Shown here piece after piece: positions 9,948-47,607 of a stretch of 64,000 bases of DNA. The stretch lies in assembly GCA_963727805.1 (NCBI GenBank), contig CAVSHF010000003.1, forward strand, positions 160,001 to 224,000, written 5' to 3'. How positions within the stretch are numbered: the stretch's first letter is position 1; the number at the start of each line of letters is the position of its first letter. Position numbers and translations under genes: made by a program. The notes below the pieces were generated by a model that worked only from the letters and a program-made list of their open reading frames with translations, searched no databases and was not told where the DNA came from. This DNA comes from an uncultured Nitrospiraceae bacterium. Its GTDB lineage: Bacteria > Nitrospirota > Thermodesulfovibrionia > Thermodesulfovibrionales > Dissulfurispiraceae.

Positions 9948-11098
9948 TTACGCAGCCTCCTCCCTGAGGCGATGTCCCGCCTCATACTTCCCTGCCGCAA
10001 AGAGTCGCAACCCTTCACGGTGAATATTTACTGATGCATTGGCATCACGGTCATGCTGAATCCCGCATGAAGGACATATCCATTGCCGATCCTTTAACCC
10101 CAGCCCTTCATGAATGTGTCCGCAGTGTGAGTAGATCTTGGAGCTCGGGTAGTACCTGCCTACCTCCACTATGGCACATCCGTACTTCAGGCCCTGCCAC
10201 TTGAGTATCGTGACGAAATCACCCCAGGCAAGGTCTGAGACCTTGCGTCCCCACAGGGCCTTCATCCCCTGCAGACTCAAATCCTCGATACAGAGCACAT
10301 CGTAAGTCTTGGCAAGCTTGGCAGCAGTCTGGACTGCCAATCCCTCCGCATGCTTGCAATTCTGCGGTACAGCCTGGCTAGAGCAAGTCTCGCTCGTCTC
10401 CGACCGTTACTGCCTTTCTTTTTCCTGCTGACATTGCCACAGGACTTCCTGAGTTGTTTGATCTGCTTCATTAGCGGGTGGGGAGCTGAGATCGTAGTCT
10501 TGTCTGAAAGGGTCACAAACGTTGTAAGCCCAAAGTCCAGACCTGCGGTGTTACCCGTCACAGTCTGCCTGGCAACGATTGCTTCGTTCAGAACTGAAAA
10601 TACTATCCAGTAATCCCCAACTGCGTCACGGACGATTGAGACAGTCTTAATCTGGCCTTCCATCGGACGTGAGTTGTGGAATTTGTACGAACAGCGCCCT
10701 ATCTGAATATGGTTGTCATCGAGCAGCTTCCATCCAGCTTGTTTGAGGGTGAAGGATTTGTACTTGACCCTCTTTTTGAACTTGGGCGGAGCGACTCTGC
10801 GGCCAATACGAGTCTTGCACCATGAGAAAAATCGCTGGTAACTCCTGTCGATTCTCTCGATCACGTCCTGCACTGACTGGGAACCAAGCAATTGCCACTC
10901 TGGTCTTACATGCTTTCTCATCAACGCAATCCGATGCTTCAGACGTGACGCAGACAGGTGTTTGCCGAACATCCGGAAGTCCCGACGGTGCAGGGCTATG
11001 CAGTGATTCCATATCTGGCAGGCAACGATGCGTTGCCGGTCCAGACGCTTGTTTCTGTCAGCTGCGTAGAGCTTGTATCTGTAGGCTTGACGCATCAT
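9948..11098 (-). pseudogene. tnpB: TnpB RNA-guided nuclease, frameshifted
   Basis: AYRYKLY, RuvC GLDFG / IEDL / DRDANA, zinc finger WICPSCG; 1-nt frameshift near 10333 splits it into two ORFs; first zinc-finger Cys is Tyr (SSKIYSHCG). Confidence 0.9.
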
Positions 11099-11123
11099 TA
11101 CCTCCTATAGTATCATTTGGTCT

Positions 11124-11525
11124 GTGAATAATTCAACAGACTTGAGACATGGTAGACACTGTGTATTCCATATGCACGTACACTTGGTCTTTGTTGCCAA
11201 ATACCGCCGTAAGGTATTTACTCCAGCGGTTATTGCTACCCTGCAAACAGTCTTCGCAAAAATATGCGAAGACTTTGAAGCAGCACTGGTTGAATGTGAT
11301 GGAGACTACGACCATGTGCACTTGCTGATCAATTACCCTCCCAAGACCTCCGTATCTAGGTTGGTTAACAGTCTCAAGGGGGCATCCTCACGCAGACTAA
11401 AAACCAAACACCCCGGACTGAAGAGATTCTACTGGAAGGGGACTCTTTGGTCTCCCAGCTACTTCGCCGCCAGCTGCGGCGGAGCACCAATCTCTATTAT
11501 CCGGCAATACATCGAAAATCAATAA
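11124..11525 (+). CDS. tnpA: IS200/IS605 Y1 (HUH) transposase TnpA
   Basis: RHCVFHMHVHLVFVAKYRR, DHVHLL (HUH), LWSPSYF, QYIENQ with catalytic Tyr. Confidence 0.95.
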   Translation: MNNSTDLRHGRHCVFHMHVHLVFVAKYRRKVFTPAVIATLQTVFAKICEDFEAALVECDGDYDHVHLLINYPPKTSVSRLVNSLKGASSRRLKTKHPGLKRFYWKGTLWSPSYFAASCGGAPISIIRQYIENQ

Positions 11526-16758: not shown

Positions 16759-17088
16759 GTAGTAGAAAGCGTCAAAGTGGCTGTATAAACCCGATATGGC
16801 ATTTTCATTCCGCTCTGGTTTTTTTTAGCAATTTTATCAATCGTTTCAATGACGGAGTGGCAACCTCAAATATAGTTAGTGACCAATGTTTTGGGCCAAA
16901 ATTGCAGGCCAATGGTGGTTCAGTGTTTCATGCGGGCTACAAAACAGACCTAGCACTGTCAACACTTTTGTCAAAACATGTCGAAGAAATAGACACTATT
17001 TATTAGAAATCAACGGAAGTAAAAGAGATAGCAGAAGACACATAACAATATGATAAATAAATGTAATTAGCCCGGCACTTCTATAAAC

Positions 17089-17138
17089 AGGACATTTCTA
17101 CTTTGCCGAAAAGAGGACATTTCTAAATTGCCTTGACA
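17089..17138. mobile_element. Orphan terminal repeat resembling an ISNCY/IS1202-type element end
   Basis: AGGACATTTCTA repeated at 17089 and 17114, ending ...TTGCCTTGACA (terminal ACA); no transposase nearby. Confidence 0.6.
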
Positions 17139-17142
17139 CTAC

Positions 17143-17172
17143 AGTGTATAAAATAATAGTGCATAAAATAAT
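17143..17172. repeat. Tandem 15-bp direct repeat abutting the -35 box
   Basis: AGTGTATAAAATAAT / AGTGCATAAAATAAT. Confidence 0.85.
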
Positions 17173-17174
17173 AG

Positions 17175-17203
17175 TTGACATCATAGCTCAAGTATTATAT
17201 AAT
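17175..17203 (+). promoter_or_regulatory. Consensus sigma70 promoter
   Basis: TTGACA (17175-17180), 17-nt spacer, TATAAT (17198-17203). Confidence 0.85.
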
Positions 17204-17209
17204 TAAATC

Positions 17210-17445
17210 AGAGAGAGGGAACTCTCTCTACACCTTTCTCCAAGTAGGGGTGTTTGATACGGGAGAAGGGAGCTTCGAAAGAGGCTGAAGGGGCTGCATT
17301 AGACAGTCCCTGGTTAGCTGAGGGGAATGTAGTTATGGATGGTAGTCGTATCCATCAGCTAACCGAAGAGGTTGCCAGAAGTTTTCTGGCACCCTTTAAA
17401 AAGTGAGGTAGGCGGCTTAAGTGCCATCTACCTCTTGTTTTTTGT
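17210..17445 (+). ncRNA. Candidate structured non-coding RNA (~235 nt), family not recognised
   Basis: Starts 7 nt after TATAAT; seven consecutive stems, two with GNRA tetraloops; ends in a hairpin plus T-rich tail. Confidence 0.7.
17405..17443 (+). terminator. Intrinsic terminator of the candidate ncRNA
   Basis: GAGGTAG..GGC-loop-GCC..CTACCTC followed by TTGTTTTTT. Confidence 0.75.
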
Positions 17446-17560
17446 AATGCGTCATCTGTTGTTGATTCTATTTATGTCACATTAAGGGGTTAGATGATTT
17501 AAACGCCGTTAAGTGGTGAATTGTGACCCATGAGAATAATCCGCTGCACATGCAATAACA

Positions 17561-18376
17561 ATGATAAACATTAAACTGATAGTGCTTCTTATAGCCATAC
17601 TTATAATATTGATTCTGATTCTTTCCGGCCGCAATCTCCAAAGGAACATGCTTTACTATCCGAGCACGCATTTGCCCTCACAAGCCTCTCTCTCAGCTTA
17701 TAATATGCAATTCTGGCCTTCCGACTCGAACAACTATCGCGGGTTCATTAGTACGGTGCAAGCTAACAAGTCAAAGGGAACGATAGTAGTTTTCCATGGA
17801 AATGCTGGCACGGCAGCGGACAGAATATATTATGTGAAAGCATTGACCTATCTCGGATATCGAGTGATACTCGCGGAATATCCTGGATATGGAGCGCGAA
17901 AGGGGGAGTTGGGAGAAGAGTCTTTTGTGCATGACGCTAAAGAGACCCTGCAACTAGTTTCCGAAAAATATGGGGGTCCGATATTTCTATTAGGAGAATC
18001 GCTCGGCTGCGGCGTTGCTGCGGCGATTGCGAAGGAATCGCCCACAAAGATTGATGGAATAATACTCATCACTCCGTGGGATACGTTGCTATCCGTAAGC
18101 CATGAAAAGTTTCCCTGGCTTCCTGTTTGGCTATTTATGCGGGATAAGTATGATACAATTGGCAATCTGAAAGCCTATCCGGGAAGAAGTGCAATAATTG
18201 CAGCTGAACGGGATGAAGTGATCCCAATACAACACGCACAGGCACTATTTAGATCACTGTCAGGCTCCCATAAGATGTACACAATCAAAGGGGCAGGTCA
18301 TAACGATTGGCCGGGAATGGTGGACCTCGAATGGTGGCGGGAGATAACGGATTTCGTTCAAGGCAGGGTAATGTGA
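17561..18376 (+). CDS. Membrane-anchored alpha/beta hydrolase (ABHD13/Bem46-like)
   Basis: FHGNAG, EYPGYG, GESLG nucleophile elbow, DEVIP, GAGHND. Confidence 0.9.
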   Translation: MINIKLIVLLIAILIILILILSGRNLQRNMLYYPSTHLPSQASLSAYNMQFWPSDSNNYRGFISTVQANKSKGTIVVFHGNAGTAADRIYYVKALTYLGYRVILAEYPGYGARKGELGEESFVHDAKETLQLVSEKYGGPIFLLGESLGCGVAAAIAKESPTKIDGIILITPWDTLLSVSHEKFPWLPVWLFMRDKYDTIGNLKAYPGRSAIIAAERDEVIPIQHAQALFRSLSGSHKMYTIKGAGHNDWPGMVDLEWWREITDFVQGRVM

Positions 18377-18892: not shown

Positions 18893-19017
18893 TTCTCTCT
18901 TCACCGAATAAGATCGTCATTACGAATGTCTATAAGAAGGGACATGTTGAAAGGATAGATTTGCAGACTTTAACTGTGTCTTTGTTTAGAACGTGGATTT
19001 GATCAATGGAGGTATGT

Positions 19018-19455
19018 ATGTTTACCGTAAAAGTCAGTAAGCCAGTGGTTCGCACAGCCGGCTTTATTAATAAACCGCGTGAAATCAATGTATCGAGAAA
19101 TACTCGCAATATTCTTGTTGTGGATGCCGACCGCAATGTACTTAAACAGATTTCGCAAAGTTTTGCCATCTGCGCAAAACACTATAACATTTTAACAGCC
19201 CACAATGGACGGGAGGCAGTGGAAACACTGCAATCAAATCCGGTAGATATTCTGCTTACTGACTTGCATGTGGCGGCCATTAATGGTTTTTCGCTAATGG
19301 ATTACACGAGATTCTATTATCCTGCCACACGGATATTTGTTATGTCGGAAGGTGACCCATCAACAATAAAAAACATTGTGAGTAATTTGGGAATTTGTGG
19401 ATACATAAGCAAACCCTATCGGATTGAAATGATTTATAGCGTTTTAAGAATCTAA
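19018..19455 (+). CDS. Single-domain response regulator (REC), copy 1
   Basis: ILVVDAD, DILLTD, FVMS, ISKP; GGAGG precedes ATG 19018. Confidence 0.85.
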   Translation: MFTVKVSKPVVRTAGFINKPREINVSRNTRNILVVDADRNVLKQISQSFAICAKHYNILTAHNGREAVETLQSNPVDILLTDLHVAAINGFSLMDYTRFYYPATRIFVMSEGDPSTIKNIVSNLGICGYISKPYRIEMIYSVLRI

Positions 19456-24392: not shown

Positions 24393-24830
24393 TCAGATTC
24401 TTAAAACGCTATAAATCATTTCAATCCGGTATGGTTTGCTTATGTATCCACTAATTCCCAAATCACTCAACTTGTTTTTTATTTCCGATGAGTCACCTTC
24501 TGACATAACGAATATTTGTGCACTAGGATAATATAATCTAGTGAGGTCTATGAGTGAATAACCACTCGCGGCCGCCATATGAAAGTCGGTAAGCAGGATA
24601 TCTACCTGAAATGATTGCAGTATTTCTACCGCTTCCAATCCATTTGAGGCTGTCAAAATGTTGTAGTGCTTTGCACAGATGGCGAAACTTTGAGAAAGCT
24701 GCTTTAACACAGTGCGGTCGGCATCCACAACAAGAATATTGCTGCTATTTCTCGATACGTGGACTTCACATGGTTGATTATTAAATTCGAGTGCGTGATC
24801 TATGGACTGACTCACGTTTGCGATAAACAT
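24393..24830 (-). CDS. Single-domain response regulator (REC), copy 2
   Basis: Paralog of 19018..19455 with identical C-terminus GYISKPYRIEMIYSVLRI. Confidence 0.85.
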   Translation of the reverse strand: MFIANVSQSIDHALEFNNQPCEVHVSRNSSNILVVDADRTVLKQLSQSFAICAKHYNILTASNGLEAVEILQSFQVDILLTDFHMAAASGYSLIDLTRLYYPSAQIFVMSEGDSSEIKNKLSDLGISGYISKPYRIEMIYSVLRI

Positions 24831-24920
24831 ATATGCCTCCATTGATTAGATCAACACTCAAACACAAAGACGCCGCTAAACTATGCAAAATATATTCTAA
24901 ATTATGTTGAGTGATAATCT

Positions 24921-47532: not shown

Positions 47533-47607
47533 GCGGGCGTAACTCAGTGGTAGAGTGCTAGCTTCCCAAGCTGGAAGTCGCGGGTTCGAATCCCGTCGCC
47601 CGCTCCA
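47533..47607 (+). tRNA. tRNA-Gly (CCC)
   Basis: Cloverleaf with acceptor GCGGGCG/CGCCCGC, anticodon loop TTCCCAA, TTCGAAT T-loop, encoded CCA. Confidence 0.97.

Follow-up and report, generated by a model that had tools for sequence, protein, structure and literature searches.

The question raised by this locus is what kind of gene is formed by a G-rich run of hairpins behind a perfect sigma70-type promoter, and what such a gene might do in a bacterium of the Nitrospirota. The window, that is, the whole stretch of DNA that was analysed (64,000 nucleotides), corresponds to G000:C3:160001-224000, and the structured element in it was named A. It is very probable that A is a stand-alone structured ncRNA gene on the plus strand, without an Rfam family. 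In broad terms it is an orphan structured ncRNA, representing a real, uncatalogued and lineage-restricted RNA family, and what sets it apart among such RNAs is that it is mobile, occurs in several copies and is found fused to a 6S-like RNA.

Promoter and predicted fold of RNA A

The locus comprises the following features.

17086..17138, no strand assigned: remnant end of an ISNCY/IS1202-type element, with two internal repeats and ending in TGACA; it matches ends found with transposases that pass model NF033594, and contigs from RNA libraries include different flanks
17144..17173, plus strand: 15-bp tandem repeat (14/15 identical) next to the -35 box on its upstream side, likely a scar of target duplication
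17175..17203, plus strand: sigma70-type promoter TTGACA-17-TATAAT, with an equivalent in 22 of 26 aligned copies
17210..17444, plus strand: RNA A, ~233 nt, its 5' end placed from the promoter and its 3' end from the U-tail
17210..17229, plus strand: H1, the 5' hairpin, whose variable loop holds the one usually exposed GGA; two-sided change in 3 of 8 pairs
17233..17269, plus strand: H2, a 9-bp stem with a loop of ~19 nt (loop conservation 0.74)
17271..17286, plus strand: H3, a GNRA-capped hairpin (loop conservation 0.92)
17289..17311, plus strand: H4, a hairpin whose loop has 7 nt and in which two-sided change was not seen
17312..17364, plus strand: H5, a 13-bp stem with a variable top; two-sided change in 5 of 13 pairs (MAFFT) or 6 of 13 (model-fitted)
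17366..17394, plus strand: H6, a bulged hairpin in which one pair alternates between G-C and A-U, in about half of the copies
17395..17404, plus strand: A/U-rich linker, conserved (0.92)
17405..17444, plus strand: H7, a bulged hairpin with U-tail, likely an intrinsic terminator
17561..18376, plus strand: alpha/beta-hydrolase gene downstream of A, a neighbour that is not conserved

The promoter reported in the first-pass annotation fits the consensus at 12 of 12 positions. It is the single perfect match in the window, where 0.05 would be expected by chance, and the 3.9-Mb genome contains 10 perfect promoters with this spacing. In one promoter type, seen in the window (17171-17191) and in homologs, the -35 box lies inside a TTGA-N9-TCAA inverted repeat, a possible operator, which is missing in the other promoter type of A. 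Behind the promoter, the seven hairpins H1 to H7 of the earlier description were all present where it had placed them, in a segment that is G-rich as claimed (48% G+C and 30% G, with flanks of 30% and 38% G+C). The segment 17205-17445 folds at -108 kcal/mol, compared with -72.1 +/- 4.7 for shuffled sequences (z -7.69), and 0 of 200 shuffles folded as well; for the minus strand of 17210-17445 the value is -84. About 70% of the bases of A are paired in the predicted fold.

Some details of the earlier description had to be revised. An inner TGGAT/ATCCA pairing in H5 is absent from both the predicted fold and the family consensus, and of two GNRA loops, that of H3 is conserved whereas the H1 loop shows no conserved GNRA. 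The reading of H7 as a terminator is upheld by its stem, U-tail and conservation, which we relied on since a terminator scan did not list H7. RNAalifold paired purines at the 5' end with the U-tail; this was set aside in favour of H1, which shows two-sided changes, and a covariation scan for pseudoknots, long-range or extra pairs gave none beyond the known helices. Readings of H5 as an integron attC site, and of its top as an SRP or kink-turn motif, were dropped, since relative to the consensus features of these motifs the order was wrong or pairs were missing. The view that A belongs to no recognised family agreed with an Rfam search of the window, in which nothing reached the gathering score for A. 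The best sub-threshold match in Rfam 15 scored 24 bits, against a cut-off of 80, and at E <= 1 no match on 17 loci covered an A copy. The sole gathering-score match in the window is a tRNA gene at 47533-47604.

Range, conservation and transcription of the family

A homolog search revealed A to be a multicopy family, with two further copies in the genome of the window (79% and 75% identity, three copies in total). At the DNA level it was found in 7 of 61 genomes. A covariance model built from 16 copies matched 11 of the 68 genomes of one Nitrospirota family, or 10 of 68 once G026 was dropped; G026 and locus L060 were left out of the counts because their match is to the terminator only (22 bits for G026). 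The ten genomes are G000, four of the seven others of genus g1, and five of the ten of genus g7. They carry one to four full-length copies each, G003 having four full and three partial ones, and partial or fused copies occur at L018, L019, L066 and L040. An exact-pattern search of all species genomes gave 10 loci, all titled Nitrospirota or Nitrospiraceae, and another pattern gave 14 metagenome loci, of which 13 are full-length and score at least 193 bits, while the remaining one runs off its contig.

Outside this range, 0 of 150 other genomes of the phylum contained A. In 150 genomes of the order, matches of 18-25 bits occurred in six; these were taken as chance, since four of the seven places cover the terminator hairpin only. 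Three patterns searched against viral contigs gave 0, 0 and 1 match, the one being without a model match, and phage and plasmid records contained no match to A. As far as these searches reach, A appears confined to two genera, with no convincing match elsewhere; misses in relatives are not absences, because many of their genomes are fragmented. A word search of the published literature, covering main texts (motif lists in supplements could hold the family), found no description of A. The g7 copy L011, from genome G033, groups with the window copy (97/96) and not with other g7 copies; either exchange between the genera or ancient paralogy may account for this. At L011 a c-di-GMP-I riboswitch-like match (L011:1414-1503; 34 bits, cut-off 59) lies immediately upstream of A and overlaps its promoter. 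A lone hairpin resembling the terminator of A, without the rest of the RNA, is present at G000:C5:536130-536190.

Pairwise identity among the copies is 64-99%, with a median of 77%, and a covariation check found compensatory changes in the helices, modest in extent, in line with selection on the fold. Relatedness inflates the figures of both alignments used, the model-fitted one leans to structure, and related sequences can exceed shuffles even without structure; with these limits, a MAFFT alignment of 16 sequences had 93.5% of its cells paired, against 91.7 when shuffled, and two-sided change in 13 of 61 pairs, against 6.9. The model-fitted alignment of 26 copies, from which three partial copies were omitted along with four metagenome loci that were near-duplicates or cut, had 95.4% of its cells paired and two-sided change in 17 of 61 pairs, against 7.0. 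G-T pairs had been said to favour an RNA of the plus strand, and the excess of G-U over A-C cells (147 versus 31) indeed fixes this strand. Stem conservation in H2-H4 and H7 is 0.90-1.0, that of the large loops 0.65-0.74, and the A/U linker together with H7 forms the most conserved stretch. The -35 and -10 boxes lie at a constant distance in 22 of the 26 copies, with two spacer types. As for the four promoterless copies, two are fusions behind the promoter of another RNA, B' (see below), one follows a tRNA fragment and one has a deviant -10 box.

Seven RNA runs, from seven studies, contain part of the stretch (small shares in X4, X5 and X7), and X8 and X9 contain no share of it. Contigs from RNA libraries, which cannot give ends, strand or level, cover A in all four runs examined (X1, X2, X3 and X6). 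X1 contributed one identical contig of 210 nt (17277-17486), its only piece in 3 kb, and X2 three homologous pieces, all within A; X3 and X6 have homologous pieces as well as cover on the IS end and the next gene. Flanking genes without contig cover are not thereby silent. The independent transcription claimed in the first-pass annotation is weakly supported: the contigs fit a transcript, but that of X1 extends 42 nt beyond the terminator, and X6 covers A and the next gene at equal depth. A is likely transcribed, and its RNA is likely abundant.

Mobile-element ends and a 6S-like companion

An RNA brought in by a mobile element had been suggested for this locus. A link to mobile DNA does exist, as IS ends lie beside A, but A itself is no MITE. 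Seven of the 26 copies have an end of the ISNCY/IS1202 type 9-36 bp upstream of their -35 box; of five transposases encoded next to such ends, four pass the ISNCY model NF033594 and one is truncated. L027 has a complete element, with a 17-bp target duplication abutting a -35 box. Nine of 11 distinct IS ends, including ends at sites unrelated to A, lie 15-17 bp upstream of a -35-like hexamer (seven by script, two by eye), against 2.5% of random positions, a background not matched for intergenic DNA, from which we infer that the element homes to promoters in general. Such ends are found at window positions 17086-17138, at L006, L027, L035, L036 and L047, and further at L082, L121, L124 and G000:C3:2118465; there are two end types, and the transposases point towards or away from the promoter. 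The ISTde1 subgroup of the IS1202 family has a stated target-duplication length of 17 bp, and the part of the source that was covered reports site targeting for the XerCD-targeting subgroup only (bioRxiv 10.1101/2022.12.17.520857). The ends flanking A resemble ISTde1 in their TGT termini, target duplication of 15-17 bp and ISNCY-type transposase; they differ in that the element is a neighbour and not part of A, and the subgroup was assigned by duplication length, not by a tree.

IS-driven rearrangement beside its promoter is a likely route by which A was relocated. A MITE or other non-autonomous IS was rejected because A has no terminal inverted repeats, no fixed ends and no clean insertion, and flanks shared between copies stop at varying points. 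In G013, A has the end of a multicopy kinase gene on one side and the 3' remnant of an ORF on the other, and this ORF is complete in all of the other g7 genomes (9 of 9); the junction, the one 'empty site' examined, reflects rearrangement and not clean insertion. No context of A is common to two g7 genomes. At L040 (1125-1413) and L041 a promoterless A copy without the 3' half of its terminator sits right behind an apparent tRNA 3' half (Glu-like, by eye), likely an integration-site remnant. The end of another repeated element, starting TGTCAAC, lies at window positions 16957-17037, with two copies of 74-76% identity at G000:C3:58129 and C4:83534.

Several loci carry a second family, B, upstream of A (B' where it adjoins A). 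B' is predicted to form a rod with a central bubble (L016) and matches the Rfam 6S model RF00013 at 29.1 and 28.4 bits over model positions 59-132; these scores lie below the gathering cut-off of 46.4, and it is therefore termed '6S-like'. The canonical 6S gene of the window's genome is located away from A (C3:383618-383800, 82 bits). Besides it, G000 has four 6S-like genes on the minus strand, three of them clear and the fourth more divergent (C3:108868-109078, 991589-991804, 2325310-2325524 and 437660-437900), and three carry a long 3' hairpin, C. Across the family B is present in 26 of 68 genomes, usually followed by C and without A.

B' lies directly upstream of A, with separate promoters, at L009 (in the order B-C-A) and L016, and is fused to A behind the promoter of B at L002 (before H1), L034 (before H2) and L018 (before H6). 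The three fusions have three different joins, each predicted to keep both folds, and they could be mere deletions between hairpin ends. Among 33 B copies the five that adjoin A form one branch (support 95/92), a divergent paralog branch distinct from the canonical 6S. Both sub-branches of A have members next to these copies, an arrangement suggestive of an ancient tandem cassette. L014 has a remnant of C beside A, and L038 is possibly linked likewise (by eye). At L131 the end of a B' copy, with an L016-type spacer, breaks off at the expected start of the promoter of A, and an A copy lies 14 kb off on the other strand. Taken together, 5 of the 28 A loci have B' as a neighbour; they belong to two of the ten A-bearing genomes and to one metagenome contig, and none of the five g7 genomes with A is among them. 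Base pairing of A with B or 6S was tried for 12 pairs, none of them clearly beyond 8 shuffles each. At L034 two 38-bp GGGG...TAAG copies in direct orientation (1050-1087 and 1954-1991), which we take to be Tn3-end-like, flank the B'-A fusion; this repeat was not found at other loci.

Possible function and comparison with known RNAs

Since coding, cis-regulation and a CsrA sponge fail as explanations (see below), A would seem to be kept for its expression and its shape. An RNA kept for these properties is most often a protein binder, and we give slightly better than even chances to a mode of action in which A binds a protein through its structure. The 6S-like link is the only clue to a partner, and for this reason RNA polymerase or sigma70 was considered; either might be the partner, which is conceivable but rather doubtful. 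The combined reading, in which A is a stand-alone ncRNA gene, probably protein-binding and possibly directed at RNA polymerase alongside the 6S-like RNA, is tentative and falls somewhat short of even chances. Non-6S RNAs that bind RNA polymerase exist, namely Ms1 and CoRP, as described in the portion of PMC11077062 covered here, and the same portion puts forward that each species has a single type of abundant RNA that binds the polymerase (PMC11077062). This proposal counts against the polymerase reading, as the genome already has a canonical 6S.

This reading includes a proposed history, in which A would have arisen, or long have sat, second in a cassette with the order promoter, 6S-like B', hairpin C, promoter, A and terminator. 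IS1202-type elements landing beside the strong promoter, together with deletions, would have split this cassette, fused parts of it and left A at new places. Selection would retain the promoter-to-terminator unit of A intact, and the likely abundant A RNA would bind a protein via its fold, possibly RNA polymerase with the 6S-like RNA. In its most far-reaching form, which as a whole we consider unlikely, A would be a new RNA-polymerase-directed class, belonging to a two-RNA transcription-control cassette with a dedicated, fusable 6S-like RNA, which was duplicated, fused, split and passed between genera with a promoter-homing IS as vehicle. If A binds RNA polymerase, it would constitute a new class beside 6S, Ms1 and CoRP; if it does not, it still shows RNA genes being born, moved and lost beside strong promoters. 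The natural B'-A fusions point to a partner and serve as ready-made test constructs. Few bacterial RNA families combine a promoter of their own and a conserved fold with a function yet to be found, and those known mostly occupy fixed places; A, being young, multicopy and mobile, is unlike most of them.

The alternative that survives best, improbable as we judge it, is an Hfq-dependent sRNA that base-pairs with mRNAs. The genome has hfq, the layout runs from promoter to terminator, and the linker and H7, the most conserved part, would with the U-tail form an Hfq module. However, with ~70% of A paired and the long loops differing between copies there is little room for a pairing seed, and five unpaired segments set against 2,133 crude start regions did no better than shuffles (a crude comparison, in one genome).

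Less probable than an sRNA is an orphan RNA antitoxin or defence RNA that holds a nuclease encoded elsewhere, which would suit a patchy, multicopy and mobile RNA; among the 30 loci scanned, three have PIN genes and one has a RelE pair. Against it, no gene, toxin-like or nuclease included, is a constant neighbour of A among the loci scanned, A has no type III-like internal repeats, and collections of phages, plasmids and viruses yielded no copy of it. Among 92 flanking proteins the only common families were ISNCY transposases (five loci), PIN (three loci) and a few pairs, and a tRNA gene lies near A at 1 of 30 loci, 1.7 kb off. A reading of A as a tracrRNA, omega-RNA or bridge RNA was set aside as well, given that no nuclease is a constant neighbour, although in such a role A might act in trans. 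A simple repeat scan gave no CRISPR-type array, and A does not match the ends of the genome's IS200/IS605 elements. One such element occupies window positions 9948-11525, with tnpA at 11124-11525 (plus strand) and a tnpB apparently split in two frames (10277-11098 and 9948-10340, minus strand). The window also has two similar response-regulator-like ORFs of 149 codons each, 19006-19455 (plus) and 24393-24842 (minus), apparently paralogs, in regions 18930-19455 and 24393-24842.

Next in probability is cargo without host benefit, a stable hairpin transcript hitchhiking on mobile DNA and decaying. The partial and fused copies, the narrow range, the IS ends beside 7 of 26 copies and the lack of a shared g7 context are consistent with it, but promoter and fold are kept while identity ranges from 64 to 99% (median 77%), and A has no terminal repeats or fixed ends of its own. 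A lower rank still goes to the idea that A acts alone or as an RNA-only assembly, a precedent for which are some orphan ornate RNAs (PMC12286853, in part): the GNRA loop and the many conserved helices would fit, whereas the simple hairpin chain, with no pseudoknot or long-range pair in the covariation scan, argues against it. A riboswitch or attenuator leader is very improbable and was rejected. In this window promoter, structure and terminator are followed by a same-strand gene 116 bp on, and AGGU/ACCU words common to H6 and H7 could swap, but of the 27 loci where mechanical calls place an ORF after A, 14 have it on the strand of A and 13 on the other, the downstream genes are of unrelated families, and no Rfam cis-element was found.

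The least probable explanations are a CsrA/RsmA sponge, as proposed in the first-pass annotation, and an mRNA for a small protein. Its count of five GGA motifs in the window copy was correct (two of the five are unpaired) and the H1-loop GGA is exposed in 12 of 16 copies, but in 15 of 16 copies no more than one GGA is exposed, and the 100%-complete genome has no csrA (one genome; the control matched 3 of 14), so that the sponge is largely refuted. The window copy holds a 50-codon ORF, but no ORF is common to 16 copies on either strand, the commonest being a minus-strand frame of 22-26 codons in 7 of 16, and a type I toxin-antitoxin or small-protein mRNA was rejected for lack of a conserved small ORF.

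Sponges such as CsrB, RsmY and RsmZ are multi-hairpin RNAs with promoter, terminator and repeated exposed GGA motifs. A is like them in its hairpins, promoter, terminator and one loop GGA, and differs in having neither repeated exposed GGA nor a csrA gene in its genome. With the raiA motif, OLE, ROOL and GOLLD, as treated in the part of PMC12286853 covered, A shares the status of an independent structured ncRNA gene of unknown function, whereas it is simpler, confined to two genera, multicopy, without fixed neighbours and without an Rfam match. Ms1 and CoRP are likewise lineage-restricted, intergenic and structured, and provide a model for the possible action of A; they are ~300 and 516 nt long, come from Actinobacteria and have been shown to bind, according to the same partial source as above (PMC11077062), while for A binding is a proposed action. 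No match between A and Ms1 or CoRP was found in the Rfam comparison. A is also not a 6S RNA, since its chain of seven hairpins has no closing stem, no central bubble and no 6S match. What it has in common with 6S/SsrS (RF00013), including paralogs like Bacillus 6S-2, is that it is a stand-alone RNA gene of ~200 nt with a strong promoter, and one branch of 6S-like genes adjoins it or is fused to it.
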